From positions 23,302 to 87,301 of the forward strand of contig JBBIIG010000003.1 in assembly GCA_037446635.1 (NCBI GenBank): DNA of 64,000 nt, given 5' to 3'. A program made the translations under genes and the position numbers. Positions 10,360 to 58,139 of this stretch are shown here, in pieces. The notes beneath the pieces are model-generated. The model was not told the origin of the DNA and made no database searches. It saw only the letters and a list, made by a program, of their open reading frames with translations. Positions within the stretch are counted from its first letter, which is position 1; the number at the start of each line of letters is the position of its first letter. The DNA is from a bacterium (GTDB lineage: Bacteria; Zhuqueibacterota; Zhuqueibacteria; Oceanimicrobiales; Oceanimicrobiaceae).

Positions 10360-11025
10360 TTGACTGAACATCAAGCAACCTACTTACAGCATCACTTCGA
10401 AGACGCCGACCAGCAGTTCGAAGCCTCAACATTGGGGATGTGGGCGTTTTTGGTCACTGAGATTCTGTTTTTTGGCGGACTGTTTTTAGGCTATTCGATC
10501 TATCGTTCTTTGTATCCGGAGGCCTTTGCTGCGGCCAGCCGGCTGCTGGATTATCGCCTCGGTGCCGTCAACACCGCGGTGCTCATCTGCAGCAGCCTGA
10601 CGATGGTGCTGGCAGTGCGCGCCGCTCAAATGGGAAATCGCCGTCCGCTCATCACCTTTTTGATTTTGACGATCCTGTTAGGCTCGACGTTTTTGGGGAT
10701 CAAAGTTGTGGAGTATTCGCACAAGTTTCACGAGCATTTGGTGCCGGGGCCGTCCTTTCATCTCCTGCCTGCGCAGGCAGGTGAGGGGAACGATCCGCAG
10801 CACGCGCAGCTTTTCTTTGCCTTCTATTTTGCGATGACCGGCATGCACGCGTTTCACATGATCATCGGCCTCGCGATTTTGGGAGTGCTGGTTTACAAAT
10901 CCTGGCAGGGACGCTTCACGTCTGAATACTACACACCAGTGGACATCACCGGCTTGTACTGGCACTTTGTGGATGTGGTCTGGATTTATCTTTTCCCATT
11001 ACTTTATCTAATCAGTCGGAGCTGA
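10360..11025 (+). CDS. ctaE: Cytochrome c oxidase subunit III
   Basis: LGMWAFLVTEILFFGGLF, NT.VL..SS, TGMHAFH, GLYWHFVDVVWIYLFPLLYL; TTG start. Confidence 0.92.
   Translation: MTEHQATYLQHHFEDADQQFEASTLGMWAFLVTEILFFGGLFLGYSIYRSLYPEAFAAASRLLDYRLGAVNTAVLICSSLTMVLAVRAAQMGNRRPLITFLILTILLGSTFLGIKVVEYSHKFHEHLVPGPSFHLLPAQAGEGNDPQHAQLFFAFYFAMTGMHAFHMIIGLAILGVLVYKSWQGRFTSEYYTPVDITGLYWHFVDVVWIYLFPLLYLISRS
10764..10781. mobile_element. 18-bp perfect palindromic mini-element (family B), in frame within ctaE
   Basis: cctgcctgc-gcaggcagg. Removing it turns FHLLPAQAGEGNDP into FHLEGNDP. An identical sequence is nested in tamB. Confidence 0.85.
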
Positions 11026-11032
11026 ACAAACG

Positions 11033-11326
11033 ATGGCGCAACACGTCATTCCGCAGAAAATTTACATCCTGGTTTTTGTCACGCTGCTTTTGCTGACGCT
11101 GGTCACCGTCGATGTGGCGTTTTATGACGCCGGCTGGCTGAGCCTGTACATCGCGCTTGCCATCGCCACCACGAAAGCAACGCTGGTGATCCTTTATTTC
11201 ATGCACCTGCGCTACAGTAGCCGCCTCACGTGGGCCTTTGTGGCGACGGGCATCCTCTTTTTGGTGATCCTGCTGGCGTTCACCATGAGCGATATTTTCA
11301 CCCGTGAATGGCTTCCCGGATGGTAA
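11033..11326 (+). CDS. ctaF: Cytochrome c oxidase subunit IV (caa3-type)
   Basis: Three TM helices, IA..KA.LVILYFMHLRY. Confidence 0.9.
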   Translation: MAQHVIPQKIYILVFVTLLLLTLVTVDVAFYDAGWLSLYIALAIATTKATLVILYFMHLRYSSRLTWAFVATGILFLVILLAFTMSDIFTREWLPGW

Positions 11327-11479
11327 GAGCCTCTTTGAATTCCGCAAACGATTTTAGCGGCGTACTCGAATGTGAAAATTTCTTCTTCCTTGGAAAACCT
11401 GCAGGGCCCATTTCCGAAAGTTCGCATTTGCCTCCAAGGTTGGTGGCAAATGCGGCAGGGGTGGTCTGAGGAGAAAACG

Positions 11480-11943
11480 GCGCCGAAAAGTCGATTGAAG
11501 GCGACTTTGTAATACTCATCTTTTAACATCACTCTTTTGCATCTCTGTGCGTGGGAAAGATTTGTATCAGCCGTTTTTAGACTTGTTCTTGCTCGTTCAA
11601 ACGTTGGCGCTGCCATAAAGCCCTTCGCTTCTTTCATGGTTTGCCCGTTTCCCAATAACACTTTTCCTAACAAGAATACACTGGCGGCGATATCTTTTCC
11701 CATCACCTGCCCGGGCGTCCGCACAATGACATCCACGCCAATTTCCAGTTCGAGAAAAGCGTCGAGGTAAAGATCCTCGTCTTTTTTATTGCGCGTGGTG
11801 ATCAAAAGATTGACATCGCGCGCCAAATCCGGCGCATAAACTGAGGAGCCAAACTGGATGATATCGACGACATCCGCATCCGCCGCTTTTAGCGATTGGC
11901 AGATTTTGCGAAGCTGATTTTGTCTTTTGTCAACCGGCGACAT
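11480..11943 (-). pseudogene. Minimal nucleotidyltransferase fused to a truncated HEPN-like helix (TA remnant)
   Basis: IIQFGSS.Y....RDVNLL (DxD degenerated to DVN), then FERARTSLKTAD..L..A...YYKVAFNRLF. The ORF then runs into unrelated sequence antisense to ctaF. Confidence 0.6.
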
Positions 11944-12115
11944 TCGAAGCTCCCAACCCTCTTTCGGGGTTGCTTTAAATTATGAAAGGTTCCCCAAAAT
12001 ACCAATTTACTGCCATGCCCGAACGACTTTATCGGGCATCCCGTGCCGCCCTCGACAAGAATTTGCCTGCTGACGCCGGCGGGCAATTCTTCTCGGGGCA
12101 GCTATTTACGCCAAT

Positions 12116-12325
12116 TTACGAAACCGGGCTCGCCGCGCGATTTTTGTAAATCGTTTTTTTGAGAATCTGCTCCATCAAACACCACTTGGTGAACGCCGAC
12201 TGAAAAAGATTCGCGCCCACAAACGCGGTGAACCAAAGCCAGTTCGTATTCACAAAGACTGCCAGCAGTAGGCTGCCTAAAATGAAGGTGCCGGCAATGG
12301 CGCGGATAGTGTGTTCTAGGCTCAT
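12116..12325 (-). CDS. DUF2892 / YgaP-like membrane protein
   Basis: IRAIAG.F.L.S..L....W....FVGANL.QS.FT.WCLM..IL. Confidence 0.9.
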   Translation of the reverse strand: MSLEHTIRAIAGTFILGSLLLAVFVNTNWLWFTAFVGANLFQSAFTKWCLMEQILKKTIYKNRAASPVS

Positions 12326-12397
12326 TTTGACCTCCTCGATTTTTGTGATAGTTAGCAGAATTTTCTGTAAATGTCAAGCAGTTCCACAAAGTGTTAC

Positions 12398-12512
12398 TGG
12401 AGTGTTGGAGTACTGGAGCGATGGATCATTGGATCCAATGGATTAATGTTGGAGACCAATAATCTAATAGTCCATCAATCCAATACAGCTCTCCAAAACT
12501 CCATTACTCCAC
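12398..12512. repeat. Inverted octamer arrays (tggagtgt/tggattaa ... tccattac)
   Basis: 8-bp periodicity. Similar tracts at 33380-33445, 39302-39400, 47745-47810 and 53262-53320. Confidence 0.75.
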
Positions 12513-12523
12513 CACCGCGCGGG

Positions 12524-12829
12524 TCAGATCATTTTTTCCACATCGATCTGAAACGCCCGCGGCGGATGATTGGGATCACATTCGTCTTTCAAGCAGGTGA
12601 TGTCGCTCATGATTTCGTCCGCCTTTTCTTTCGCGATTACCGCAAAAAAAAGGGTCGAATACATGGGCACATTGCCTTTTTCAAAAACCCACCAGCCGTA
12701 CTTTTGAATGGTGTCCGACGAATGACCGGTAATTTCGATTTCACTATAAATTTGCACTTTGTGTTTTTCGAACAATTTGCGCACCTGCTCGCGATATAAG
12801 GATAATGACATCAGGACAATCAGTTTCAT
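12524..12829 (-). CDS. Small P-II-like (ferredoxin-fold) protein
   Basis: 101 aa, MKLIVL...V..LF....V..YS...I.G...PPRAF...VE pattern, in the RND operon. Confidence 0.55.
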   Translation of the reverse strand: MKLIVLMSLSLYREQVRKLFEKHKVQIYSEIEITGHSSDTIQKYGWWVFEKGNVPMYSTLFFAVIAKEKADEIMSDITCLKDECDPNHPPRAFQIDVEKMI

Positions 12830-12838
12830 GGAGCCTCC

Positions 12839-13129
12839 TCAATAAATTTGCTCAACTGGCGTAACCACTATGCGCAAACACGGTTTCACCCGGCATTGGT
12901 TGGCATACTCGGTCAGCTCGTTAGTGATGCCGCGCAGTTGCTCATCGTTTGGAAAGATGATAAACGCACTGGCCTGCCACGCCAGGTCTTTCTCGTAGCT
13001 GCCCTTGGGCTTGGGTTTGTTGCCGTAAATTTCCGGCATGTGGATAAAACCTTCCAGTTCGTAATGATGCAACACCCGGCTCACGGTCTCATTGAGCTCC
13101 GTGCTGCAATAGATCGTCAACTGTTTCAT
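12839..13129 (-). CDS. Second small P-II-like protein
   Basis: 96 aa from ATG 13129 behind AAGGA; beta-alpha-beta pattern ending RIVVTPVEQIY. Confidence 0.5.
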   Translation of the reverse strand: MKQLTIYCSTELNETVSRVLHHYELEGFIHMPEIYGNKPKPKGSYEKDLAWQASAFIIFPNDEQLRGITNELTEYANQCRVKPCLRIVVTPVEQIY

Positions 13130-13194
13130 AGTTCGTTCCTTTAGTTTTTCCGTCTCAGTTATGTGAGAGGCACTCAGTGGAGTATTGGACGCGG

Positions 13195-19404: not shown

Positions 19405-19482
19405 TTTTGACAATGACAATTGACAAAGGGCGATTGAAAATTGTGAATTGTGAATGACGAATGGTCAATTGTCAATTCAATC
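19405..19482. repeat. Heptamer arrays (ttgacaa/ttgtgaa), inverted
   Basis: ttgacaa-tgacaa-ttgacaa ... ttgtgaa-ttgtgaa-tgacgaa-tggtcaa-ttgtcaa; same type at 21795-21925. Confidence 0.75.
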
Positions 19483-19488
19483 TTTGCG

Positions 19489-21779: not shown

Positions 21780-21945
21780 GACCTGCTCTCCTAATCGATG
21801 ATCGATAATCGATGATTGATGATTGGTAAATTCCATTAACAATTCATCATTGACAATTCACCATTGACAATTGATGTGAGTGGCGAACCCAATTGTGAAT
21901 GGTGAATTGTCAATTGTGAACTGCCAACTGGCGACTGGAGACTGC

Positions 21946-25736: not shown

Positions 25737-28700
25737 ATGACTAAAATCATCAAGTATCTTTCCTATTTCTTACTATTCATAATCGTAGCGGCGCTGCTGC
25801 TCGCCGTTTTCACCCAAACTCCGATCTTCAAGAATTGGCTGAAAAACAAAATCATTCAATTGGCGGAAAGCAGCCTCAACGGCGAGGTCGCGATTCAGTC
25901 CCTGCAAGGCAATCTCTTCAGCTATTTTGAGATCGAGGGGCTGTCGGTAAAAATCGCCGGCGACGATTTTCTGAGGGTCCAGCGGGCGTTCATCAGTTTT
26001 AACCCCTACTCCTTTCTGAACAAAAAAATTGCGCTGCGGCAAATCATTTTGGCGGCGCCCGAAATCCACTTAACCCAAATGGATTCCGCCCACTGGAATT
26101 TTCATCGCCTTTTGAAACCGACGGCGCAGCCGGCGCCATCCGACAGCGCCACTCACTTCAACTGGGCCGTGGCGGCGCCCAACATCGTGGTCGCCGACGG
26201 CGCCATGCATCTGCGAACGCTCGGGGCGCTGCCGGTGGTGCTTCCAAAAACCATTCAAAACCTGAACGTCATTTTAGGACTCTGGCTCAACCAAGAAGAA
26301 ACCCAACTGGCGCTGGAAAAGCTGAGCTTCGACGCCCGCGACCCCGATCTCAGCTTGCGCACCAGCGAAACCAGGTTTCTTTTCCAGCGCGACCATCTCA
26401 AAGCCGAGGAGCTGGAAATTCAAACCGGCGCCTCCAAGCTCTCATCAAACATCGACATCAAAAATTTCACGGACCCGCAGGTGGATGCCCTGATTCAAGG
26501 GCAGCCGCTTTCTTTCACCGAGCTGCGCCGCGCCCTCCCTAAGCTGCGACTATACGGCGACCCCAAAATCATGCTAAAGGTGCGCGGCGGCCTCAGCGAT
26601 CTCGAAATCAATCTCCGCCTTTGGATGGGTGAAAACAACCTCGCCCTTTCCGGAAATCTCCAGCTCAAGCAGCCGCCCTATCGCTACCAGCTCAAAGGCG
26701 AGGTTTCGCATTTGAATGTGGCGGACTTCACCCACGACTCAACTTTTGCCAGCGATCTCAATTTTAATTTCGAGGTGGCGGGCCGGGAGTTTGAGTTTCA
26801 CAAAATGTCCAGCCAACTGACGCTGGCGCTCGATCGCAGCGCGGCGTTCGGGCTGTGGTTCGAGCCGCTCTGGGGGCGCTGTGAGATCGACAGCGCTCAA
26901 ATTAAATTTACGCTGCAAACCGGGTCGCGGGGGGCGAAAGCCGCAGCGGAGGGTTGGGCCACTTTGGCCGGCGACCTCCCCTCCTATCGTTTTCACGCCG
27001 ACATCCACAATTTCGATCTCAGCCAGTTCACCGACTCGTCGGCGGTGCACAGCGATCTCAATCTGCGCCTCGACGTCGATGGCCAGGGGATGGATGCCGA
27101 AACCCTCAGCGGCCATTTCAACTTAAAGTTGGCGCCGTCGAGTCTCAACGGCGTCCCCATCGACTCTGCTTATTTTCAAATTCACTTGCAGGAGAAAACG
27201 CTGCACCTGCGGGAGGTTTGGCTGGCCTCGCCGTTCACAAAGGTGACGGCGGCTGGCACCATCTCCGTTTCCGCCAAAGCGGACCCGCCAAGCGGACACA
27301 AAGAAAATCACCTGCAAGTGGAGGCCCAATTCATCGACTTCTCGGTGCTGAGCCAATCGCTGCCGCTGGATTCCCTGGCCGGCCGCGGCCGGTTTCACGC
27401 GCGCTTGGATGGCCCGCTGGATTCCCTGCTGGCGACCGCCACCCTTGAGCTGGTGGAACTTGCCGGCCGCGATTTCGCAATCGGGCAATTCGCGGCGCGA
27501 GGAACGGGCGTCTATTCGCCCGAAGGGGTGCGGTTCGAGGTGGCCGGGCGGCTCGATACCACTGCCGTCTTTGGAATGACCGATTTGCGCTCCGATTTCA
27601 ATTTTAGACTCGCCGATTCCGCCGTTCATTTTCGCATCGCCGCCCACAAGTTAGACGACCTCTCCGCCGCTACCACTGGCGAGTTGCGCTGGGATGGCGA
27701 AAGCGTGACGGTTTTTATCGACACGCTGAAGCTGAGCGTATTAAATCAGCAGTGGCAGAAAACCAGCGATTCCACCACTCTGCACATCGACGACGACGGC
27801 TACACGATTTCGGAGCTGCGGCTCTCCAGCGGCCAGCAATCTTTTTTCATCTCCGGAAACATGAATTTGGAAAAGGGCAACAACCTGTTGCTGCGCTTGC
27901 AGAACGTGGACCTCACCGGCTATCGCGCTTTTTTGGAGCGCGACGTCAACCTCAACGGCCGGCTGAATTTGAACGTGGCATTGGCCGGCGATCTGGCGGC
28001 GCCCACGATTCGCGCCGATTTTGAAGTCGCCAACTTGGAATATTACCAGGTGCCGTTTGCAAGCTTTTCCGGCTTTCTGGAATTTCAGAACGATTCCCTG
28101 CGTTGGCAGGCGGCGCTCTCCAAAACGGTGAGCGACAGCACGATGGAGACGAGCGGCTTCATTCCGATGAGACTGTCGTTTACGCGAAGCGGATCGCCTG
28201 CCCGCCCGCCAGAAGCCTTCCGCCGAAGCGGATCCGCCAAGCGGACAGGCAGGCGGGCCTGCGCAGGCAGGGTATCCGACGCTCCCTACGAATTTTGCAT
28301 TTTGTCCGACGAGCAAGTGGAAATCAGAATCAGCGCCCAAAATTTGGATCTGTCTTTTTTGCAGTTGTTTGCCACCGACATCAAAAACATCAAAGGTAAG
28401 CTGGCGGCGAACATCGTTTTGCGCAACACGCTCAACGATCTGCGCGGCGTCGGGCCCATCCGCATTTTCGACGGCCAGTTCGATATCCCCACTTTAGGCA
28501 CGCAGTACCGCAACGTCAATTTAGTGTTGCTGCTGCAGGATCAGGAGCTGATCATCAAAGATTTTCGGATGCAATCGGGCGGCGGCGAATTGCGGCTAGT
28601 GGAAGGCGGGCTGACGCTTTCCGAAAAAAGCCTCGAGGATTTCTCGGATACCGATCCGCTTCGCGGAAAAGTGCGCTTGCGCGCCAACAATTTTCGCTTG

Positions 28701-29747
28701 ATGAACGATAAACGCATGCAGGCGAGAGTGAAAGGCGATCTCGAACTCTCCGGCAGCATCCGCGCGCCCAAGTTTGCCGGCGAAATCACCGTCACCGAAT
28801 CGCGTATTTATTATCCGGCCTGGTTCGAACACGAACATCTGGTGGAACTCGCCAGCCAGCCCTATTTTATCATCTCCGACGATTCCACCGTGTTTGACAA
28901 CGACGGCGCCATGCGCTTCCAGAAGACCCGCGCCGCTGCCGAAGGCGATTTCACCAAAACGGAATTTTACAAACGGCTGCGCGGCGAGCTGGCCATCTAT
29001 TTTCCCCGCAACACCTGGATTCGCGGCAACGATCTCAACCTCGAAGTGGAGGGCGAGTTGGTGGCGGTGAAAGAGGGGCCGGAGATCGTTTTGTTCGGAA
29101 ATTTTCTAACCATTCGCGGCTACTATGAACTGCTGGGCAATCGTTTTCAAATCAATCAGGGGGAATTGGTTTTTCACGGCGAGCCGGAGCCGAACCCGGA
29201 GGTGAAAATCGAGGCGGTTTATGAGTTCCAGGACGCCGCCAGCGAAGACCGCCAGAAGCACGAGTTCAAAGTGACGATCACCGGCACCCTCTACACCCCG
29301 GAATTCAAATTCACCCTCGACGATCAGATTGCGGAGCAGGAAGATATTTTATCGATTTTATTATTCGGGCAGCGCCGCTCGTCGCTATCGGTGGGCCAGG
29401 CCTACAGCGCTTCCAAAGAAACCGATCTTGAAGATCGCGCCACCGGACTGGTAGCCGGGCAGATTATCAAACAGCTTTCGGGGAGGCTCGGCCAAACGCT
29501 GAAACTCGATATGATCCAAATCGAAAGCGGCAAAGATTTGACCGAGTCCAAAGTCCGGATCGGCAAATATGTGACCCCGGACGTGTTCGTGAGCGTCAGC
29601 CAGGATTTCGGCGACGAGGGCAATCGCAAAGTGGAGCTAGAGTATGAACTGCCCAAAAAGCTTTTCTTTCTCAACCTGTTGATGCAAGCCTCCGTGGAGC
29701 GGCGCGGCGCCACCGGTCTGGATATCATCTGGAAAATTGAGTGGTAA
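25737..29747 (+). CDS. tamB: Translocation and assembly module TamB, carrying three in-frame mini-element insertions
   Basis: N-terminal anchor, long beta-rich body, C-terminal DUF490-like region (RG.Y...G.RF.I..G...F.G, IGKY.T). Confidence 0.9.
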   Translation: MTKIIKYLSYFLLFIIVAALLLAVFTQTPIFKNWLKNKIIQLAESSLNGEVAIQSLQGNLFSYFEIEGLSVKIAGDDFLRVQRAFISFNPYSFLNKKIALRQIILAAPEIHLTQMDSAHWNFHRLLKPTAQPAPSDSATHFNWAVAAPNIVVADGAMHLRTLGALPVVLPKTIQNLNVILGLWLNQEETQLALEKLSFDARDPDLSLRTSETRFLFQRDHLKAEELEIQTGASKLSSNIDIKNFTDPQVDALIQGQPLSFTELRRALPKLRLYGDPKIMLKVRGGLSDLEINLRLWMGENNLALSGNLQLKQPPYRYQLKGEVSHLNVADFTHDSTFASDLNFNFEVAGREFEFHKMSSQLTLALDRSAAFGLWFEPLWGRCEIDSAQIKFTLQTGSRGAKAAAEGWATLAGDLPSYRFHADIHNFDLSQFTDSSAVHSDLNLRLDVDGQGMDAETLSGHFNLKLAPSSLNGVPIDSAYFQIHLQEKTLHLREVWLASPFTKVTAAGTISVSAKADPPSGHKENHLQVEAQFIDFSVLSQSLPLDSLAGRGRFHARLDGPLDSLLATATLELVELAGRDFAIGQFAARGTGVYSPEGVRFEVAGRLDTTAVFGMTDLRSDFNFRLADSAVHFRIAAHKLDDLSAATTGELRWDGESVTVFIDTLKLSVLNQQWQKTSDSTTLHIDDDGYTISELRLSSGQQSFFISGNMNLEKGNNLLLRLQNVDLTGYRAFLERDVNLNGRLNLNVALAGDLAAPTIRADFEVANLEYYQVPFASFSGFLEFQNDSLRWQAALSKTVSDSTMETSGFIPMRLSFTRSGSPARPPEAFRRSGSAKRTGRRACAGRVSDAPYEFCILSDEQVEIRISAQNLDLSFLQLFATDIKNIKGKLAANIVLRNTLNDLRGVGPIRIFDGQFDIPTLGTQYRNVNLVLLLQDQELIIKDFRMQSGGGELRLVEGGLTLSEKSLEDFSDTDPLRGKVRLRANNFRLMNDKRMQARVKGDLELSGSIRAPKFAGEITVTESRIYYPAWFEHEHLVELASQPYFIISDDSTVFDNDGAMRFQKTRAAAEGDFTKTEFYKRLRGELAIYFPRNTWIRGNDLNLEVEGELVAVKEGPEIVLFGNFLTIRGYYELLGNRFQINQGELVFHGEPEPNPEVKIEAVYEFQDAASEDRQKHEFKVTITGTLYTPEFKFTLDDQIAEQEDILSILLFGQRRSSLSVGQAYSASKETDLEDRATGLVAGQIIKQLSGRLGQTLKLDMIQIESGKDLTESKVRIGKYVTPDVFVSVSQDFGDEGNRKVELEYELPKKLFFLNLLMQASVERRGATGLDIIWKIEW
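27270..27296. mobile_element. 27-bp double-hairpin mini-element (family D), in frame within tamB
   Basis: tccgc-caaa-gcgga + cccgc-caa-gcgga encodes SAKADPPSG; 25/27 identical to 28219-28245. Confidence 0.8.
28181..28279. mobile_element. 99-bp four-level nested mini-element insertion A[B[C[D]]], in frame within tamB
   Basis: Decomposes into 24+18+30+27 bp, each matching a stand-alone copy elsewhere in the window. Removal gives LSFAPYEF. Confidence 0.88.
28644..28667. mobile_element. 24-bp double-hairpin mini-element (family A), in frame within tamB
   Basis: tcgg-ata-ccga + tccgc-ttc-gcgga encodes SDTDPLRG. Its reverse complement matches 23/24 with the outer shell of 28181-28279. Confidence 0.82.
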
Positions 29748-33357: not shown

Positions 33358-33484
33358 AGGATCGACGAGGCCTCTTTGGCTGGAGTGTTGGAGTAGTGGA
33401 GTGCTGGATTAATGATCCATTGATCCATTGATCCATTGATCCACAATCTGATAACTGAGATTTGACTATCTTCACAAAAGTTTT

Positions 33485-37922: not shown

Positions 37923-38062
37923 TGTCATTGCGAGCGACCCGTAGGGAGCGAAGCAATCTCCTAATGAGCAGGCGTGAGATTGCTTCGTCGTCCGCAACCT
38001 AATTTTAGAATTTCAGAATCCGTGTGGGCTTCTCGCCTGCCTGCTGCAGGCAGGCAATGACA
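37923..38062. repeat. gtcattgcgag...ctcgcaatgac palindromic repeat with a 19-bp family B element inserted in its right arm (38036-38054)
   Basis: ctcg|cctgcctgctgcaggcagg|caatgac; the uninterrupted ctcgcaatgac is seen at 3804-3814 and in this repeat's own left arm. Confidence 0.85.
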
Positions 38063-39318: not shown

Positions 39319-39337
39319 CCTGCCTGCTGCAGGCAGG
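39319..39337. mobile_element. 19-bp family B mini-element in an intergenic octamer array
   Basis: cctgcctgc-t-gcaggcagg, identical to 38036-38054. Confidence 0.8.
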
Positions 39338-41798: not shown

Positions 41799-41895
41799 AA
41801 TCTTAAGTGCCACGCACTTTTAAAGTGCGTGGCACTTCTGCGGTCAACTTCAGTCTTAAAAGATTCTCCTGAATGACACGCCGGCCGTTTCAGGG

Positions 41896-42543: not shown

Positions 42544-42834
42544 TGGACGCTGATTGCGCAGATAAACGCTGATTATTACAATGTGAGACAATTTAGAGCT
42601 CCATTTCACTTGTACAGGTTCCTTAGACCTCACCCTTCCGCGAAGCGGATCCGCTTTGGCGGAAACCCTCTCCTATAAGGAGAGGGAACCGAATCCCTTC
42701 CCCTGTTACCTGCCTGCCGCAGACAGGAGGGAAGGTTAGGATGGGGTCATCTGATTGATGATACGAGCCTGCAAATATTTTTGAAAATGGTGTCCCAGAG
42801 AAATCAGCGTGAATCTGCGATCATCTGCGTCCCA
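42544..42834. repeat. Composite intergenic repeat: acgcagat/acgctgat inverted ends enclosing ccctctcc hairpins, with a 27-bp A/D-type element (42637-42663) and a 19-bp B element (42709-42727)
   Basis: tggacgctgattgcgcagataaacgctgatt ... aatcagcgtgaatctgcgatcatctgcgtccca; tccgcgaagcggatccgctttggcgga; cctgcctgccgcagacagg. Confidence 0.8.
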
Positions 42835-43570: not shown

Positions 43571-43597
43571 TCGGCAGAGCCGATCCGCTTTTGCGGA
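43571..43597. mobile_element. 27-bp double-hairpin mini-element (A/D type), intergenic
   Basis: tcggc-aga-gccga + tccgc-tttt-gcgga inside an agattcctcactccg...gttcgggatgaca repeat. Confidence 0.7.
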
Positions 43598-44640: not shown

Positions 44641-45930
44641 ATGATGAAGAAGCTTGAAAGAACATGGCTGGTTTGGGCTGCGAGCTTGTTCGTGTTGATA
44701 ATATTGAATGATGAAAGCCATTCACAGGAGCTGACCAAAAAGGGGCGATATTACATCGCCGAGGTAACCAAAAATTTTACCGCCAGGCCCGGCGGCACGC
44801 TGCGAATTTACGACATCCGCGGCAACGTGGATGTGCAGAGCTGGGATAAAAACGAAGTGCTGGTTAAAGAATACAAAAAAATTGATGCTCGCTCTGAGCG
44901 CGAGGCAAAAGAGATTCTGGAAAAATCCCGCTCCGGTTATTCCCAACGCGGAGACGTGATTGAAATTGGCGGCGATTATTACGATCGCGATTGGATGGAA
45001 AGCGACTACGTGGTAACCGTCCCCAAAAATTTTAATGTTGATATTCGAACCCGCGGCGGCGATGTGAATGTTGGACATCTAACCGGCAAAGTTGACCTGA
45101 TGACTTCCGGCGGCGAAATTCGTTTGAATGATATCGATGGCCCGGTGGACGCGAAAACCTCCGGCGGCGATATCGAAGTCATCAACTCGAAGCAGCGCAC
45201 CAGCGTCTCCACCTCCGGCGGCGATTTGGATTTGGAGGACATCGGCGGGCCGCTGATTGCCAAAACCTCCGGCGGCGACATCACTCTGCGCGGCTCGCGG
45301 GACCGCGCCGTCATTCACACTTCCGGCGGCGACATTTTCATCAGCGATGCCGGCGGCGCGGTGGAGGCGCACACCTCCGGCGGCGATATTGAAATTTCCA
45401 ATACCAAAGGCGCGGCGGAAGTGCACACCTCCGGCGGCGACATCCAGTTGCGCAATATCGGTGGCACGCTGCAAGCCTCCACTTCCGGCGGCGATATTGT
45501 GGGCCGCGGCATTCAGGGCGGCGCGGAAATTTCCACTTCCGGCGGCGAAATTGAATTGTTGGATGTGAAGGGCGGCGTCTATGCCAAAACCGCCGGCGGC
45601 GATATCACGGTTGAGATTACGCTGACCGATTTTAAGGTGGATCACCGCACCAGTTTGCGCACCGCCGGCGGCGAAATTACCCTCTACATTCCGGAAAAAA
45701 TGCCGGCCTCCATTCGCGCCGAAATTGAAATCACCGACCGCTGGGAAGACTACAATATCTATTCCGATTTTCCGCTCACCAGCTCATCGGAGTCCAGCAG
45801 TGGCGAAAGCCGGCGCTGGCGCAGCCGCAAATTTATCCGCGGCGAAGGCGACATCAACGGCGGCGGCGATTTCATCGAGCTGTACACCACCGACGGCGAC
45901 ATTCACATTAAAAAATTGCTGAAAAAGTAG
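44641..45930 (+). CDS. DUF4097 beta-strand repeat protein
   Basis: Signal peptide; many TSGGDI repeats. Confidence 0.9.
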   Translation: MMKKLERTWLVWAASLFVLIILNDESHSQELTKKGRYYIAEVTKNFTARPGGTLRIYDIRGNVDVQSWDKNEVLVKEYKKIDARSEREAKEILEKSRSGYSQRGDVIEIGGDYYDRDWMESDYVVTVPKNFNVDIRTRGGDVNVGHLTGKVDLMTSGGEIRLNDIDGPVDAKTSGGDIEVINSKQRTSVSTSGGDLDLEDIGGPLIAKTSGGDITLRGSRDRAVIHTSGGDIFISDAGGAVEAHTSGGDIEISNTKGAAEVHTSGGDIQLRNIGGTLQASTSGGDIVGRGIQGGAEISTSGGEIELLDVKGGVYAKTAGGDITVEITLTDFKVDHRTSLRTAGGEITLYIPEKMPASIRAEIEITDRWEDYNIYSDFPLTSSSESSSGESRRWRSRKFIRGEGDINGGGDFIELYTTDGDIHIKKLLKK

Positions 45931-45941
45931 GGACTGAAAAA

Positions 45942-46925
45942 ATGAAAACGAAAAAAGTATGGCTGCCATTTGCGACCATTTTTTGGTTGGCTGCCAACGC
46001 CAACGCCGTCCAAGATTTTGAGCGGCGAATCGAAAAAAGTTTTCAAGTTCAAAAAGGCGGGACACTGTTTCTAAAAACCGATCGCGGCTCGGTGACAATT
46101 CGCGCGCACGCCGCCGAGGAAGTGAAGGTCGATGTGATGCTGGAGGCCGACACCCGCAATCGCGAGCGCGCCAAAGAGTGGTTGGACGAGTTTGAGATCA
46201 GCTTCGAGCAGCGCGGCAGCGATGTGGACATTCGCGGCGAGTGGCCGCACGAATGGTCGTGGCACAGCGATCGCTTGAAGGTGCACTTCGATATTCTCGT
46301 CCCGCAGCAGTACAACCTCGATGTTGAAACCGCCGGCGGCAGCATCGACGTCGGCGATCTCAAGGGCGAAGTTAAGTTGCAAACCTCTGGCGGCAGCATC
46401 ACTACGGGGCGCATCGGCGGTCCGGTTTCGGCGCACACTTCGGGCGGCAGCATCTCGATTGCCGGCGCCAAAGGCGAAACCGTGGCGCACACCGCCGGCG
46501 GCGGCATCACCCTCGGAGAAATCGACGGCTCCGCCGACGCCAAAACCTCTGGTGGCTCGATCACAGTGGAAGGCGTCAACGGCGATCTGCAGGCGCGCAC
46601 CTCCGGCGGCAGTCTGCGGCTGCAAAACGTCAGCGGAAATCTAATTGCTAAAACTTCCGGCGGCTCGATTACCGCCCGCTTGCTCAAGCAGATCAATGCG
46701 CCGGCGGATCTCGAAACCTCCGGCGGCAGCATCCGCTTGGAGATTCCTCCCGATTTCAAAGCCGATATCGACGCCTCCACCTCCGGCGGCCGCGTTTACG
46801 CCGATCTACCCATTATAGTTCGCGGCGTCATCGACAAAAGCGATTTGCGCGGCAAACTCAACGGCGGCGGAGCGTTGATCACCCTTCGCACCTCCGGCGG
46901 CAGCATCGAGATTCGCGAGCGGTAG
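45942..46925 (+). CDS. DUF4097 beta-strand repeat protein
   Basis: Signal peptide; TSGGSI repeats; G.LNGGG..I.LRTSGG.I end. Confidence 0.9.
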   Translation: MKTKKVWLPFATIFWLAANANAVQDFERRIEKSFQVQKGGTLFLKTDRGSVTIRAHAAEEVKVDVMLEADTRNRERAKEWLDEFEISFEQRGSDVDIRGEWPHEWSWHSDRLKVHFDILVPQQYNLDVETAGGSIDVGDLKGEVKLQTSGGSITTGRIGGPVSAHTSGGSISIAGAKGETVAHTAGGGITLGEIDGSADAKTSGGSITVEGVNGDLQARTSGGSLRLQNVSGNLIAKTSGGSITARLLKQINAPADLETSGGSIRLEIPPDFKADIDASTSGGRVYADLPIIVRGVIDKSDLRGKLNGGGALITLRTSGGSIEIRER

Positions 46926-46956
46926 AGCCGAACAACCGCCAAATTTGCGCGATCAC

Positions 46957-48507: not shown

Positions 48508-48584
48508 CGCCAAAAATCTGTTGCATTAATCTTTGCAAAATCCTACTATATTTTCGAAAAAAAGGCTGTCCGAAAGAGATAATC

Positions 48585-49208: not shown

Positions 49209-49232
49209 TTTTTGCAGCTCAAACGGATCATC

Positions 49233-50310: not shown

Positions 50311-50311
50311 T

Positions 50312-51077: not shown

Positions 51078-51082
51078 TTCCA

Positions 51083-51949
51083 ATGAACCTCGACTTCCTG
51101 ATCGACAAAGTTGTAGATGAAATGACTGCTCAGCCCGTCCACTCGCACGGCGTGAAAACGCCCGAGTGCAACTGGTGCTGGGTGTGCCCCAACTGCCGCA
51201 GCGAGGTGGTGAAAGAGATGGTTGGCAATGGCGCCAATCGCGTGGGCGCGGGACCGAATTTAGGCCCGATTCACACGAACCTCGCAAAGTACATCGATCA
51301 CACGTTGCTCAAACCGGAAGCCACCGAAGATCAAATCATCAAACTGTGCCATGAAGCGGTGCAGTACGGCTTCGCTTCGGTGTGTGTTAATCCGACCTGG
51401 GTGCGGCTCTGCCGTGAGCTGACGCGCAACAGCGACGTGCTGGTGTGCACCGTGGCCGGCTTTCCGTTGGGCGCCAACACGACTGCGGTTAAAGCCTTTG
51501 AAACCCAGAAAGCGGTGGAAGAAGGCGCCGACGAAGTGGATATGGTCATCAACATCGGGCGGATGAAATCCGGCGACTACAATTTCGTGATGCGCGACAT
51601 CCGCGCGGTGGTAGAGGCCGCGGCCAAACGCGCAGAAGTCAAAGTCATCATCGAAACCTGTTATCTCACGGATGAAGAAAAAATCAAAGCGTGTCTCTTG
51701 GTCAAGGAAGCCGGCGCGCATTTCGTGAAAACTTCAACTGGCTTTGGCAAACAGGGCGCGACCCTCGGCGACGTGGCACTCATGCGCAAAGTCGTCGGTA
51801 GCGAATTGGGCGTGAAGGCCGCCGGCGGCATCCGCGATTACGAGGTCGCGGCGCAGATGATCGAAGCCGGCGCCAACCGACTCGGCGCCTCCGCCAGCGT
51901 GGCTATCATCGGACTGCCCGCCAGAGGCCTTGGGCAGGCGGGCAAATGA
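51083..51949 (+). CDS. deoC: Deoxyribose-phosphate aldolase with N-terminal extension (putative encapsulation peptide + Cys cluster)
   Basis: [40 protein letters not shown]; about 65 extra N-terminal residues. Confidence 0.97.
51913..51942. mobile_element. 30-bp family C mini-element, in frame at the deoC C-terminus
   Basis: actgcccgccagaggccttgggcaggcggg encodes [10 protein letters not shown]; 26/30 identical to 57305-57334. Confidence 0.8.
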
Positions 51950-53265
51950 ATCCCATCGACATCATCATAAAAAAGCGCGACGGTGAAACCCTCAGCGCCG
52001 AGGAATTGCAGTTCCTGATTTCGGGCTACGTCCGCGACGAGATTCCCGACTATCAAATCGCTGCATTTTTAATGAGCGTTTATTTTCAGGGAATGCAGCC
52101 GACTGAAATCGCGACTCTCACGCAAATTATGCGTGACTCCGGCACCGTGCTCGATCTCGCCGACATCCCCGGATTCAAAATCGACAAACACAGCACCGGC
52201 GGCGTCGGCGATAAAGTCTCGCTCATTCTCGCGCCGCTGGTGGCAGCCGCCGGACTCATTGTGCCGATGATTTCCGGGCGCTCGCTGGCCCACACCGGCG
52301 GCACGCTCGATAAGTTGGAAGCCATTCCCGGTTTTCGCACCAATCTCAGCATCCCCGAAATTAAATCCCTGTTGAAAAAAATCGGCGTGGCGCTAGTGGG
52401 ACAGACGGCCGATCTGACTCCCGCCGACAAAAAAATCTACGCTCTACGCGACGCCACCGGCACCGTGCACGCGATCCCGCTCATCACCGCCAGCATCTTG
52501 AGCAAAAAACTGGCCGAGGGCATCGATGCGCTGGTGCTGGACGTCAAAGCCGGCAGCGGCGCGATTTTCGAAACCAAAGAGAAGGCGGAGGAGTTGGCGC
52601 GCATGTTGGTCGCCACCGCTAACCAGTTTAATTTGAAAACGGTTGCCATCATCACCTCGATGGAACAGCCGCTGGGCAACGCTATCGGCAACTGGCTGGA
52701 GACCCGCGAAGCCCTTGCGACGCTGCGGGGAAGCGGGCCGGCGGATTTGCTGGAGGTCACCCTCACCCTCGGCGCGCAGATGCTGGTGCTGGCCGGCGCG
52801 GCCGCGAATCTCGAATTCGGCAAAAAAATCTTGCAAGAGAAAATCGATGATGGCTCTGGCTTTGAAAAATTTTGGGAGATTGTGAAAGCGCAGGGCGGCG
52901 ATACCTCGGTGATCGAAAATCCTGAAAGTTACCCGGCTGCTAAATTCTCATTTGAAGTAAAAAGTCCGAAGGCCGGATTTGTTTCCAAAATACACTGCCG
53001 GGAAATTGGCAAAATTTCCATGGCCCTCGGCGCCGGCCGCAGCGCGGTGAAAGACGGCGTGGATTACACTTCCGGCATCGTGCTGCATAAAAAGGTTGGC
53101 GATCGTATCGAAGCCGATGAGGTGCTGGCTGTGGCGTACACCAACAAAAAAGAGCGCATCGAAGAAAACAAAAATCGTCTGCAAAATGCTTTTAAAATAG
53201 TTGATGCGCAAGTTGATCCGCCGCCGCTGATTCAGGGGTGGGTGGATGGCAACGACGAGGAGTGA
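51946..53265 (+). CDS. pdp: Pyrimidine-nucleoside/thymidine phosphorylase
   Basis: [47 protein letters not shown]. Confidence 0.96.
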
Positions 53266-53350
53266 TGGAGTGCTGGATCAATGAAGCGGCAACCACATGA
53301 ATCCATAGACCCATCAATCTAGGCTGAATAGAGAGAAAAAAGGTTAGAGC

Positions 53351-53752: not shown

Positions 53753-53754
53753 TT

Positions 53755-54075
53755 TCACTGCACGACCACCGCCGTTCCGCTGGCCGAGACCATCAACATG
53801 CCGTTGTTTTGACCCAGCACTTCGTAGTCGAGATCGATGCCAACCACTGCGTTCGCGCCCAACTCTTGTGCGCGTTGTTGCAGTTCATCGAGCGCAATGT
53901 CGCGAGCATTTTGCAGCTCTTTTTCATAAGTGGCCGATCGCCCGCCGACGAGATCGCGGATGCCAGCGAACAGATCTTTGAAAATGTTCGCGCCCAGGAT
54001 TGCCTCTCCAGCAACGATGCCGCAATACTTGGTGATGCGCTTGCCTTCGATGGTTGGGGTAGTGGTAAGTTGCAT
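53755..54075 (-). CDS. YbjQ/UPF0145 family protein
   Basis: TTT..IEG..I..Y.GIV.GE, RD.VGGRS..YE.EL..AR, GANAVVG, V.ASGTAV. Confidence 0.95.
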
Positions 54076-54089
54076 GGTTCCTCCCAATG

Positions 54090-54359
54090 TCAAGAATTTT
54101 GCTGACTACTGGCTTGGTTAATTTTTTCTTGAACCCATAGGTTTAACAGAGTCTCTTCGCTAATTCCACGTTCTTCGGCGATCTGTCTAACCTTCAATGA
54201 AAGATGGCCGTCCAATGGGTAATACTTGCGTTGCGATTTAATCTTCACATCGAATTTCACTTCAGTCTGTTCTCCGAATTCAGTAGCATCATGTTCATCC
54301 CAAAACGCGCCTATTTCCTGATAAGTGCGAGCTTTTGAGATTGGTGTTTTACTTGACAT
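54090..54359 (-). CDS. CopG/BrnA-type antitoxin
   Basis: EIG.FWD.HD.T, A..RG.S.ETL.NLW.QEK. Confidence 0.82.
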
Positions 54360-54420
54360 ACTTTTTCCTTTCCTTTTTTGTCATCTCTCGTGCTGAAACG
54401 ATGATAGCTTGTTTGTATAA
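54349..54420 (-). pseudogene. 3' remnant of a BrnT-like toxin
   Basis: [21 protein letters not shown] overlaps the antitoxin start; the 5' part is missing. Confidence 0.7.
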
Positions 54421-54556
54421 ACTGCTTTCCTCCAGTTACTCCAATTTCTCAAGTCTAATATTAGACACTGAATGTCTAAATATGGCCGTTGCCATCCCGA
54501 TCCTTTAAATTTAGACCAAGCCGCAAAACCTTCAAGATTCCAGGGTTCTATAAGAA

Positions 54557-54702
54557 TCACCCCAGCAAATCTGCCACCACCGCTTTCTCTTCATTCAATT
54601 CCTTCAATGTGATCTGAATTTTCTCGCGGGCGAAGTCGCTCCACTTCACGTTTTGCACAATCGAATAGTTGCCTTTGCCGTCGCTGGTGCAGGGGAAGGA
54701 AA
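54557..54702 (-). pseudogene. Duplicated 3' end of mdh (direct repeat of 55366-55511)
   Basis: About 146 bp nearly identical to the mdh tail; encodes [15 protein letters not shown]...KAVVADLLG* versus ...VADLIK*. Confidence 0.92.
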
Positions 54703-54717
54703 GACTATTTACTCCCG

Positions 54718-54990
54718 TCATTGATGTGTTTGTTCGATGGGGTCTTTATGGGCTTCAGCATATATGCGAAGAGCTGCGGCCATGAGGCGGGAGTAGTCTT
54801 TGCCTTGTGCCTTGAACCACTCCAGTACCTCAGGCTCTACGCGCACAGTAATAGATACCGGCGGTCGCGGCATACGCAAGGTGGCCTTGGCAAAAAACTC
54901 TTCCGACAAAGGTGGAACGTCGGAAGTGTCAATCATTTCATCGGTCATGACATCAATGCGGGCCCAGTCGGTCTCGGAAGGCTTGTTCAT
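54718..54990 (-). CDS. BrnA-family antitoxin
   Basis: TDW.R...M.DE.ID.SD.P.L..EFF..A, T.RV...VLEWFK.QG..Y...M..ALR.Y. Confidence 0.9.
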   Translation of the reverse strand: MNKPSETDWARIDVMTDEMIDTSDVPPLSEEFFAKATLRMPRPPVSITVRVEPEVLEWFKAQGKDYSRLMAAALRIYAEAHKDPIEQTHQ

Positions 54991-55256
54991 ATTTTGTTTG
55001 TTCATGTGTAAGTGCCTTTCTTAATGAAATAATTCTGATTACTTCTTCGTCACTTTCTTCGCGCTCGGCAAAAACCTACTACAACGATACACGCATCAAG
55101 CACGCCAATTCCAATCCACCGGTCTTCGCCATAATCCTCGCGTTCGTCAAGGTTCGTAAGCATAGGGGTCGCAAAAATTTTCCACGCATCGGCAAAATCG
55201 AAGCCGTGCTTACGAATGTTCTCCTTACGTTTGTTTTCGTCCCACTCAAAGCGCAT
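54953..55256 (-). pseudogene. BrnT-family toxin with a +1 frameshift near 55075
   Basis: MRFEWDE.K...N.RKHG.DF, D.REDYGE.RW..IG. Removing one base restores VVVFAERE...IRIISLRKA..HEQ..Y. Confidence 0.85.
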
Positions 55257-55365
55257 GAATTATGTGTAGTTGCCAAGTTCAGCTAATGGACTTTATCTCG
55301 ACTTCAAATATAGCATAAATCCCGAATGACGCAACCCGAAATCTGGGAGGTTCGAGAATCAATTC

Positions 55366-56349
55366 TCACTTAATCAAATCCGCTACCACCGCTTTCTCTT
55401 CGTTCAATTCTTTCAATGTGATATGAATTTTCTCGCGGGCGAAGTCGCTCCACTTCACGTTTTGCACAATCGAGTAGTTGCCTTTGCCGTCGCTGGTGCA
55501 GGGGAAGGAAAAGATCAGCTCGTCCGTGATGCCGTAGCTGCCGTCGGTGGCCACGGCAGCGGAGAACCAGTCGCCCGCTGGGGTTTTGGCCAGCAGCGTT
55601 TTCACGTGATCGATGGCGGCGTTGGCGGCAGACATCGCCGAGGAAAGCCCGCGGGCGGCAATCACCGCGGCGCCGCGCTGCTGCACGGTTTTGATGAAAT
55701 CTTCCCGCAGCCACGCGACGTGGCCGATGGCGTCGGTGGCCGGCTTGCCTTTGATCTTCGCGTTTTCGAAATCGGGAAATTGCGTGGCGCTGTGGTTGCC
55801 CCAGATGGTCATATTGGTCACGTCCTTCACCGAGACGCCGGCCTTCTTCGCCAATTGCGCTTTGGCGCGCAGCTCATCCAGTCGGGTCATGGCGCTGAAA
55901 CGCTCGCGGGGAATGTCCTTGGCGTTCTTCATGCAAATCAGGCAATTGGTGTTAGCGGGATTGCCCACCACGAATACCCGCACGTCATCGGCGGCTTTGG
56001 CGAGCGCCTTGCCCTGTCCCACGAAAATCGGGCCGTTGTCGCGAATGAGGTCTTTGCGCTCCATGCCTTTGCCGCGCGGCTTGGCGCCAATCAGCAGCGC
56101 CCAGTTGATACCATCAAAAGCAGTCTCGGCTTTATCGGTCACCACAATTTTTTCAACCAATGGAAACGCGCAATCTTCGATTTCCATCACCACGCCTTCG
56201 AGGGCGGGCAGTACCGGCGTGATTTCCAGCAAATGCAGATGGAGTTTGGTATCGGCGCCAAACACTTCTCCCGAAGCGATGCGCGGAAGAATGGCGTAGC
56301 CAATTTGTCCCGCCGCGCCGGTCACGGCAACCTTCACGGTTTTTGACAT
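55366..56349 (-). CDS. mdh: Malate dehydrogenase
   Basis: [53 protein letters not shown]. Confidence 0.98.
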
Positions 56350-56765
56350 CGCAACCTCCTTCGATTTTCGTCTTTATTACTTTGTTGGTCAAATAGCTGC
56401 AGCCTGTTCAAAGATAATTTAAAGATAAGAATCGGGTGATGATCCGCAAGGGATTTTTTTGCGACTCAGTAGGGCCGCCTGCCAAGTTTTCGCTTGCGCT
56501 TTGAGAAAGATTTTTTTATTTAATACCACGCAAAAATAGAGGAGCTTGTGAGACACCTCACATTTAGTTTCCAATTTGATCCTGGAGTGGATTTTTATTC
56601 TGTATGAAGGCCATCCGCCCAATGGAAAGACCGGATTACGACGCTTCTACAAATGTTCCACCACGAGCTGTTAAAATTGGCCGCGTTCCTTCGCAATCGG
56701 AAATTCTTTGAGACGCCCTTACTCATTTTAGGAATTGCTCCACAAACTAAAACAGAGGAATCAGC

Positions 56766-58139
56766 ATGATGAAAAAAATGACACTCGTAATTATCTCATT
56801 CTCACTATTAGTTTATGCTGCTGCATTTCCCAGCGAACCCAACGCCGACCAGCAGCGCAACTGGCCGCAGTGGCGGGGACCGCTGGCCAACGGCGTCGCC
56901 CCGCACGCCAATCCACCAGTCGAATGGAGCGCAACCAAAAACATCCGCTGGAAAACCGAAATTCCCGGACGCGGTCACGCCACGCCCATCGTTTGGGGTG
57001 AGCAGATTTTCATCTTAACCGCGGTAGAAACGGAACAGGCCGGCAGCACTCCCGCCGCCGATAATAACCTGCCCGAATGGCGACGCGGCCGCGGCATTTC
57101 CACGGACAAAATCCACCGCTACGACGTTCTCTCCATCAACCGAAAAGATGGCAAAATTCTTTGGCAGAAAACCGCGACCACCGCGCTGCCCCACGAAGGC
57201 ACCCACACCGACGGCAGTTGGGCCTCCCACTCGCCGATTACCGATGGCGAATTGCTATTTGCGTATTTTGGATCGCGGGGAATTTTTTGTTACGATCTCA
57301 AAGGCCTGCCCGCCAGAAGCCTAAGGCAGGCGGGCAATTTGAAATGGCAGAAAGATTTGGGCGACATGACCACCCGTAACAGTTTCGGCGAGGGCAGCTC
57401 GCCGGCGCTGCACGGAGATAAACTCATCATCAACTGGGATCACGAGGGGCAATCGTTTATTGTCGTTCTCAATAAAAAAACTGGTGAAGAAATTTGGCGC
57501 GCCGATCGCGACGAACCGACCTCGTGGTCCACGCCACTGGTGGTGAGCCATGATGGCCAGCCGCAGGTGATCGTCAGCGCCACCAATCGCGTGCGCAGTT
57601 ATGATCTCAACAGCGGCAAAATTTTGTGGGAATCGAGCGGCATGACCGTAAATACGATCCCCTCGCCCGTGCACGATGACGGCATAGTGTACGTGATGAG
57701 CGGCTTCCGCGGCAGCGCGCTGCAAGCCATTCGCCTCGCCGATGCCCGCGGCTACATCAACGATACGCCGGCCATCATCTGGCAGCACGACCGCGACACG
57801 CCGTATGTGCCCTCGCCGCTGCTGTACGACGACAACCTCTATTTTCTGAAAGTGAACACGGCTATTCTTTCCTGCTTCAACGCCCGCACGGGCGAGCCCA
57901 ATTATGAGCCGCAGCGGCTGGAGGGGTTGACGAACGTTTACAGCTCGCCCGTGGGCGCGGCGGGTCGCGTTTATATCACCAGCCGCAACGGCGCGACCCT
58001 GGTGCTGAAAAACAGCCCACAATTCGAGGTGCTCGCCGTCAATCAACTCCATGATGATTTCGAGGCCTCGGCGGCGTTAGTTGATGGGGAATTGTACTTG
58101 CGAGGAAAACAGACGTTGTATTGTATAGCGGAAAACTGA
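56766..58139 (+). CDS. PQQ-binding-like beta-propeller protein
   Basis: WPQWRGP..NG, WKT.IPG.G..TP.VW, SSP, WSTP, YSSPV, LYLRG...LYCI. Confidence 0.9.
   Translation: MMKKMTLVIISFSLLVYAAAFPSEPNADQQRNWPQWRGPLANGVAPHANPPVEWSATKNIRWKTEIPGRGHATPIVWGEQIFILTAVETEQAGSTPAADNNLPEWRRGRGISTDKIHRYDVLSINRKDGKILWQKTATTALPHEGTHTDGSWASHSPITDGELLFAYFGSRGIFCYDLKGLPARSLRQAGNLKWQKDLGDMTTRNSFGEGSSPALHGDKLIINWDHEGQSFIVVLNKKTGEEIWRADRDEPTSWSTPLVVSHDGQPQVIVSATNRVRSYDLNSGKILWESSGMTVNTIPSPVHDDGIVYVMSGFRGSALQAIRLADARGYINDTPAIIWQHDRDTPYVPSPLLYDDNLYFLKVNTAILSCFNARTGEPNYEPQRLEGLTNVYSSPVGAAGRVYITSRNGATLVLKNSPQFEVLAVNQLHDDFEASAALVDGELYLRGKQTLYCIAEN
57305..57334. mobile_element. 30-bp family C mini-element, in frame in the beta-propeller gene
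   Basis: cctgcccgccagaagcctaaggcaggcggg. Removal restores the blade motif CYDLKGNLKWQKDLG. Confidence 0.88.

Follow-up and report, generated by a model that had tools for sequence, protein, structure and literature searches.

Very short palindromic DNA elements of 18-30 nt, assigned to families A, B, C and D, are scattered through a stretch of 64,000 nt of contig JBBIIG010000003.1 (hereafter the window), which belongs to a 110-contig draft genome of 4.64 Mb (GCA_037446635.1, designated G000), and these elements are real, recently mobile and widespread. They exhibit fixed ends, exactly empty counterpart sites, neither duplication nor loss of target bases, mutual nesting, filtering by reading frame within genes, an oriented target in the case of A/D and patchy bursts across phyla. 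On balance, these non-autonomous elements probably move as copies in the form of single-stranded DNA (ssDNA) hairpins, which an enzyme supplied in trans would link to a target strand, in a manner resembling IS200/IS605.

Empty sites, insertion joints and coding copies

An initial annotation of the window had described B as cctgcctgc(n)gcaggcagg, C as c(c/t)gcccgccaga..cct..ggcaggcggg and A and D as paired tc..ga mini-hairpins, and these motifs were indeed found at 14/14 of the coordinates it gave, corresponding to 11 insertion sites, of which 6 are coding and 5/11 intergenic (Table 1). Comparison with the sister genome G001 (same genus, 3.3 Mb) covered 356 kb of the latter, with 77 + 245 sites examined. 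Both flanks could be aligned at 32 sites (21 + 11), of which 17 are exactly empty, 7 are shared (four distinct loci, three of them counted from both sides) and 8 are of other kinds, namely two that are exact with a 27-nt boundary, five rows in which nesting has added 18 or 30 nt, and one tangled case. One B common to the two genomes has decayed in G000 and has acquired a C inside it in G001. In G185, a single-contig gammaproteobacterial record and the genome of locus L212, the empty forms of near-identical repeats differ from the filled ones by the element exactly in 30/30 cases. The empty-site junctions include T|G, A|C, G|T, A|T, C|G and others in G185, and C|C, T|C and C|G in G000/G001. In both comparisons joints are blunt, with no duplication and no loss, in agreement with the precise, duplication-free and non-autonomous mini-elements postulated initially. 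The target-site duplication expected of a miniature inverted-repeat transposable element moved by a DDE transposase is hence lacking; only where the junction is G|C would a GC duplication look identical to blunt insertion, and a reading in terms of a 2-3-nt 'GC' duplication was rejected, as it fits such sites only and fails at the other junctions.

The proposal that removal of coding copies restores family-type protein sequence was also borne out, with six exact gaps (6, 9, 33, 8, 10 and 10 residues) in alignments to relatives. The 6-residue insert of CtaE is common to G000 and G001 and absent from 10/10 other orthologues aligned, the three TamB inserts (9, 33 and 8 residues) are absent from 9/9 orthologues, the 10-residue insert of the beta-propeller protein is absent from 15 orthologues (L002-L016), with the empty site in G001 reading AAAGG|CAAT, and the 30 nt (10 residues) near the 3' end of deoC are absent from G001. 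Occurrence of the same peptides in orthologues of distant relatives would have spoken against mobility; among the orthologues aligned, a copy was present solely in ctaE of the sister genome G001. In an AlphaFold2 model of the propeller protein (16 sequences, mean pLDDT 83), the insert occupies residues 181-190 and is predicted to form a loop linking strand 173-177 to strand 191-196, the pLDDT of the insert block being 60. The idea that element peptides sit in protein loops would thus hold for this insert, in the one protein modelled.

Frame filtering, nesting and spread

Simple patterns match G000 99 times for B, 26 times for C (some overlapping B) and 54 times for A, as compared to 0, 0 and 0 matches in a 4.6-Mb order-4 Markov sequence and 0 matches of the reversed patterns in G000, which argues against a frequency dictated by GC content. 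After iterative stripping of nested copies, 196 insertion sites were counted (B 105, A 50, C 28, D 10, E 3), with looser patterns recovering further decayed copies; E is a 21-nt family related to B and C, with two of its three sites in predicted genes and in frame. Using a set of 3,920 genes predicted with our own hexamer caller, whose coding and intergenic labels carry some error, and with host genes in the window named by Pfam, 77 sites fall within 72 predicted genes, adding short peptides to proteins as initially claimed, and 119 are intergenic, with a site density of 174 per Mb in intergenic against 19.5 per Mb in coding DNA (~9x). Element length is a multiple of three at 76/77 coding but only 77/119 intergenic sites (p = 7e-10), and this difference together with the higher intergenic density indicates that genes are not targeted and that selection acts as the filter. 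In-frame insertion, as the initial annotation implied, must therefore be revised, since insertion is frame-blind and mostly intergenic, in-frame copies being the survivors. All copies of the 19-nt form of B (23/23) are intergenic. Among coding B copies, 33/43 use the phase yielding LPAQAG-like peptides, against the 37% predicted by the target profile of intergenic copies (p = 2e-7), and residues beside the coding copies are Pro-rich and poor in Val and Ile. We infer that purifying selection underlies both the in-frame state and this phase preference. Orientation with respect to genes is unbiased (A/D, 7 sense and 5 antisense; C, 5 and 5).

Elements are also inserted within one another. The 99-nt block in tamB has the structure D(B(C(A))), made up of 24+18+30+27 nt, and BLAST of it against plasmids and phages gave weak matches only (E 0.07 or worse). 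A total of 25 nests could be taken apart in G000 (seven of B in A, six of A in C, four of A in B, three of C in B, two of B in D, two of B in C and one of B in B), in which excision of the inner element yields a canonical outer element. The A-in-C nests have one junction and one inner variant in 6/6 cases with a variable outer C, which suggests that composites move as units, the alternative being repeated use of one preferred bond. Other repeats serve as hosts as well, comprising SRM-like hairpins (identified by the motif given in passages of PMC11893778), octamer tracts and tRNA fragments: 29/62 intergenic B sites and 20/36 intergenic A sites lie within such repeats against a background of 7%, and A occupies predicted unpaired loops at 33/36 intergenic sites against 59%. 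A tRNA-intron interpretation was discarded, because ARAGORN reports an identical set of 45 tRNAs with and without the elements, and the inserts sit in tRNA fragments beside intact genes.

In G185, frameshifting B copies of 19 nt, 12-14 in number, are present in blocks of nested insertion sequences (L421:926-3704 and L426:1875-4132, with pieces resembling IS110, IS30 and IS5 transposases by eye), approximately 1 per 200 bp as compared to 1 per 7 kb genome-wide, many of them at the same sites, and forms empty there also exist. This load reflects either neutral accumulation or inactivation of resident insertion sequences by B. At another locus of this genome (L723, G185:C1, near 2534000), the left arm of a B copy is expanded into a tandem CCTG run.

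With regard to spread, B is abundant in G000 and G001, and 0-4 exact copies are present in each of the 19 other genomes of the family. Within the phylum, any exact B occurs in 26/167 genomes and 12 or more copies in 5, with separate bursts in G067, G087 and G083, and the highest count found is that of G185, with 509 exact copies on one contig. A scan of one of the 64 parts into which the GTDB collection is divided revealed 123 loci with B-type elements, mostly of a 20-nt form, with an estimate of ~24,000 stretches. B is nearly invariant across Patescibacteria, Bacteroidota, Omnitrophota, Acidobacteriota, Planctomycetota, Proteobacteria, others and phages (86 in IMG/VR), and it is also present in isolate and single-contig genomes, including the cultured flavobacteria Winogradskyella echinorum, Flagellimonas yonaguniensis and Robertkochia flava. 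C-type copies were observed in 6 viral stretches, and A-type cores in 9/167 genomes of the phylum, a few of them probably by chance; matches of a loose A pattern in the metagenome scan were mostly chance, and locus L538 was excluded from the count.

Table 1. Element copies in the window (window positions) and, in the last three rows, approximate positions of family E in G000
Element	Length	Position	Strand	Context
B	18 nt	10764..10781	no strand	in ctaE/COX3 (10360-11025 +), +6 residues (LPAQAG frame), also in G001
A, double hairpin	27 nt	27270..27296	+	in tamB (25737-29747), +9 residues; G001 site empty
Four-level nest	99 nt	28181..28279	+	in tamB, 33 residues
Nest, D outermost		28181-28196 + 28272-28279		encloses B
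Nest, B		28197-28200 + 28258-28271		inside D, encloses C
Nest, C		28201-28218 + 28246-28257		inside B, encloses A
Nest, A innermost		28219-28245		inside C
D	24 nt	28644..28667	-	in tamB, 3' of CTTT, +8 residues; G001 site empty
B	19 nt	38036..38054	no strand	intergenic, within SRM/NTS-like hairpin repeat (motif compared with PMC11893778)
B	19 nt	39319..39337	no strand	intergenic, within octamer tandem-repeat tract
A	27 nt	42637..42663	+	intergenic, 3' of CCCT, loop of recurrent host hairpin repeat
B	19 nt	42709..42727	no strand	intergenic, loop of second hairpin of host repeat also holding A at 42637
A	27 nt	43571..43597	-	intergenic, 3' of TTTT, within SRM-like repeat
C	30 nt	51913..51942	+	last codons of deoC (51083-51949 +), +10 residues; G001 site empty
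C	30 nt	57305..57334	+	PQQ_2 beta-propeller gene (56766-58139 +), +10 residues, predicted loop between two strands; G001 empty
E	21 nt	G000:C44:4446-4466		
E	21 nt	G000:C6:75678-75698		
E	21 nt	G000:C50:10764-10784		

The window contains further repeats of other types: a 33-nt palindrome of another family (3229-3261 and 41803-41835), 7-8-nt periodic tracts arranged in inverted fashion, the coordinates of other repeats being 6522-6669, 19417-19475, 21834-21941, 12397-12431, 33380-33430 and 53257-53291, and a 146-nt direct repeat (93%; 54557-54702 and 55366-55511) in which the 3' end of a malate-dehydrogenase-like gene is copied ~800 nt downstream. Coding repeats comprise three 822-nt units in the first open reading frame (ORF; 765-2708) and 54-nt TSGGDI-type units in two neighbouring genes (45081-46928).

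The single-strand model and its rivals

A and D are asymmetric double hairpins, folding as two hairpins, and their 40 unique sites, when oriented, show C 31 at position -4, T 28 at -3, T 33 at -2 and T 29 at -1, with CTTT at 16/40 and a weaker right flank, as compared to a control of 119 pattern matches, mostly due to chance, in which no tetranucleotide exceeded 4. The asymmetric 18-nt form of B is likewise left-weighted (-3 T 14, -1 G 17 and +1 C 11 of 18). Taken together, a 5' tetranucleotide target used in a fixed orientation, a hairpin at either end and the lack of duplication match the IS200/IS605 pattern (PMC3119063, PMC8266576), and transposition of ssDNA hairpins in trans is therefore favoured; passages of PMC3119063 describe IS605-type logic in such terms (no duplication, near-terminal palindromes, a target of 4-6 nt). 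In this model, a strand-transfer enzyme provided in trans would join an ssDNA hairpin copy of the element to the target strand, similar to the 'peel-and-paste' of IS200/IS605, and by recognizing the element ends it would carry nested cargo along. Blunt exact joints would point to strand transfer rather than cut-and-repair. As to the identity of this enzyme, an HUH protein of the Y1 type, either divergent or lost in the meantime, is a tentative candidate, a small Ssn-like GIY-YIG nuclease assisted by host repair is a rather unlikely one, and the remaining probability goes to another or a host enzyme.

Several observations weigh against this model. The main one is that Y1_Tnp (PF01797) has no match in G185, the genome richest in B, nor in G169 and G204, and hence the probability of a Y1-independent route is not small. 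The four Y1_Tnp matches of G000, the best being RAYT-like (2e-14), are each flanked by other repeats, TnpB was not found over the cut-off in 5 genomes including G000 and G185, and IS110 is without a match in G000, as it is in G067. Among the neighbours of B, amounting to 61 small ORFs from named genomes and 45 from relatives with few copies, no transposase or nuclease recurs, and no cognate enzyme was found among the families tested, a search which did not extend to other HUH proteins (Rep, relaxase, Y2) or serine recombinases. Nor is one-sidedness of the target general, as C has a symmetric G|C target (G 22 and C 22 of 23), and the 19-nt B shows no more than a weak R|Y preference in G185 (n = 64) and two informative flanks in G000/G001 (n = 12). 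The loop of A does not co-vary with the target tetranucleotide, no bias in strand relative to local GC skew was seen in this draft assembly, and enrichment in host repeats may in part be due to co-amplification of host and insert, or to neutrality.

The initial annotation had correctly noted no mobilising gene in the window and had recommended looking for a nuclease or RAYT gene repeatedly flanked by the hairpins; in G000, the RAYT-like genes and the three small GIY-YIG genes are flanked by other repeats instead, those of the latter being SRM-like or tRNA repeats without B or C. No gene bracketed by element arms in G000 suggested a transposase, none of 34 left-hairpin solos there reads as the end of an element bearing tnpA/tnpB, and in viral contigs the ORFs lying between B copies spaced 656-674 bp from each other differ in sequence and show no transposase signature by eye (no Pfam scan). 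Exact B copies near 30 Y1_Tnp loci numbered 3 against 1.6 expected. Other candidates were rejected by their distribution: RVT_1 (PF00078) is over the cut-off in 3/5 B-rich genomes with none in G087, DUF559 is found in 2/5 genomes with no match in G185, GxxExxY in 4/5 with none in G204, and 23S_rRNA_IVP in 15/18 with none in G185. The trans-acting enzyme proposed initially may still exist, with no fit to Y1_Tnp, RVT_1, IS110, TnpB, DUF559, GxxExxY, 23S_rRNA_IVP or GIY-YIG.

G000 harbours many REP-like families, and its four RAYT-like and three small GIY-YIG genes have repeats of their own. At G000:C94:1-480 (L720), at G000:C90:12380-12700 and at L401 of G067, a tRNA-Ser(TGA) is followed by a small GIY-YIG gene and then by a duplicated tRNA fragment, in which both G000 and G067 contain an A-type element in the anticodon loop. 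In G001 (L726, G001:C522:4000-5990), two small GIY-YIG cassettes, whose ends are similar, interrupt an integrase-like gene.

Among alternatives to the single-strand model, hairpins might be cut by a small nuclease of the GIY-YIG type acting on single strands (Ssn-like or linked to tRNA), with host repair patching the palindromes in and nuclease cassettes ferrying elements between lineages, an account that we regard as unlikely. GIY-YIG is the sole tested family found in 16/16 B-rich genomes, but presence alone does not single it out, being near-universal (164/167 genomes of the phylum, mostly B-free). Passages of PMC11893778 report that SsnA cuts ssDNA beside hairpin repeats. The ~4x excess of exact B near 30 GIY-YIG loci (10 observed, 2.6 expected) is a weak hint. 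The flanks of nuclease genes may be just a neutral, hairpin-rich landing ground, and the GIY-YIG proteins near B are diverse. As a further weak hint, the tRNA-Ser-linked GIY-YIG of G000 has its best match of the phylum in B-rich G067 (63%, internal stop), and in the cassettes of both genomes the tRNA fragment that follows is interrupted by an A-type insert at one identical bond of its anticodon loop. The co-occurrence count, with hits in 10/25 B-positive against 20/141 B-negative genomes (p = 0.004; 9/24 against 19/140 without the unpublished G159 and G163), comes from a post hoc test in which kin are not independent. Moreover, cut-and-patch would leave some untidy joints, contrary to the exactness of all those in G185.

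A conserved host activity (template switching, repair or topoisomerase-like breakage-reunion) could copy hairpins with no dedicated mobiliser and would account for one sequence in many phyla; we consider this less probable still. C at -4 of A/D (14/18 coding sites, p = 0.016) resembles the cleavage preference of type IA topoisomerases, an idea that fits A/D and fails for B, whose targets have no excess of C at this position (48/100 against 46% expected). The near-invariance of B across phyla and phages is unlike the co-diverging RAYT-REP pairs described in passages of PMC8266576, and no linked gene was found, which agree with a host activity; the patchy copy numbers within the phylum speak against it, as does the fact that the B target differs by lineage (G|C at 57/100 in G000; A|C, A|T and G|C in G185). 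Movement via an RNA intermediate and reverse transcription, reportedly proposed earlier for Nostoc SDRs, appears improbable: the hairpins are stable and copies are found beside tRNA genes and in tRNA-like fragments, but no reverse transcriptase is common to B-rich genomes, sense bias in genes, duplications and tails are all lacking, and the window has 0 Rfam matches. That the elements are artefacts of assembly or of adapters, or GC-rich palindromes that arose by chance, can be dismissed almost entirely. G000 is a draft of many contigs and its reads, from two DNA runs (share 0.18), yielded short, low-depth contigs only; however, the diverged, orthologous copies shared with G001 and the copies in isolate and single-contig genomes exclude an artefact, and the Markov control and the filtering by frame and phase argue equally against chance.

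Relation to known systems and significance

By analogy, A/D would work like PATEs, B and C like SMR-A, the coding copies like intragenic repetitive extragenic palindromes (REPs) and Rickettsia palindromic elements (RPEs), and the elements would match SDRs in size. Elhai and colleagues are said to have reported SDRs in 2008 as 21-27 nt long, nested and landing in tandem repeats. The initial comparison with RPEs was valid but too narrow, as passages of several papers already describe short intragenic REPs including RPE-4/6 (PMC3733652) and Nostocaceae SDRs (PMC5861425, PMC4390886). SDR1-8 are likewise very small mobile repeats whose mobiliser is not known, as stated in passages of PMC5861425, PMC4390886 and PMC3116915, and passages citing Elhai et al. 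2008 have SDR5 inserting precisely between bases 3 and 4 of HIP1. By the account in parts of PMC5861425, SDRs were not found outside Nostocaceae, in contrast to B in many phyla and phages, the comparison being one of descriptions and not of sequences.

REPs of the GTAG and CGTC families, associated with tyrosine transposases (RAYTs), are palindromes of 20-40 bp that lie mainly outside genes, with some in frame within ORFs, singly or as dimers (passages of PMC3733652 and PMC8266576). The present elements agree in copy number and mostly extragenic location, with the 18-19 nt of B just below that size range. They differ in that their ends, fixed by empty sites, have no GTAG/CGTC tag and variable flanks, no cognate RAYT flanked by the repeat is seen in G000, and B reaches its highest copy number without a Y1_Tnp match and inserts into CGTC/SRM-type repeats. 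As with RPEs, palindromes are read through in frame in unrelated proteins (passages of PMC10969869 and PMC3733652), but classic RPE families measure ~150 bp (PMC10969869, in part) and the elements here are shorter, nest mutually and spread across phyla, again as judged by description and not by sequence. Haloquadratum PATEs, as portrayed in passages of PMC3119063, share with A/D the absence of duplication, near-terminal palindromes (here a hairpin at each end), and a 4-5-nt target, and include 52-bp terminal-only forms to which A/D are comparable; orientation 3' of such a target is seen for A/D (CTTT-like, n = 40), partly for 18-nt B (n = 18) and not for C, and no ends common with an element bearing tnpA/tnpB, nor TnpA, were found. 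SMR-A of the same source resembles B and C in its inverted ends, lack of duplication, landing in palindromes of other elements and enigmatic mobilisation, at ~110 bp against 18-30 nt. Both differ by their larger size (52-110 bp), and here no IS605-type parent was found and coding insertions are common. Finally, Ssn/SRM/NTS systems also combine short hairpin repeats with small GIY-YIG ssDNA nucleases (passages of PMC11893778), but SRMs lie on both sides of ssnA and share a conserved 5' flank, an arrangement not observed for these elements in G000, where SRM-like repeats are targets and not members.

By the tests run, the elements are thus members of no known system, being without tag, RAYT, parent insertion sequence or duplication. 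Their kind is known but poorly understood, and families B, C and A/D themselves were not met in that literature: no description was found in open-access full texts, a scope outside which lie subscription journals and supplements, including those of PMC3733652, in which REP families are catalogued and a match might be present. New in this window are four co-active families in one genome, their mutual nesting, a quantified frame and phase selection and the one-sided target rule of A/D. It is tentatively conceivable, although we would not yet lean on it, that they represent a minimal class of cross-phylum mobile DNA of 18-30 bases, inserted precisely as single strands without a DDE or Y1-HUH transposase, whose putative enzyme would read hairpin ends only, take along nested cargo of up to ~100 bases and leave no duplication, and which would be a steady source of protein loops and of frameshifts in insertion sequences.

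How very short palindromes spread (REPs without RAYT, RPEs, SDRs and SMRs) is an open question, to which the filled and empty pairs contribute defined ends, a target rule and a blunt joint; since cultured flavobacteria carry B, oligonucleotides and sequencing now offer a way of testing it. An enzyme inserting short DNA precisely and duplication-free would be of mechanistic interest and of interest as a tool. For protein evolution, ~2% of predicted genes of G000 (72 of 3,920) carry element peptides, and for annotation, LPAQAG-type peptides met in proteins of no common family represent footprints of DNA rather than motifs.

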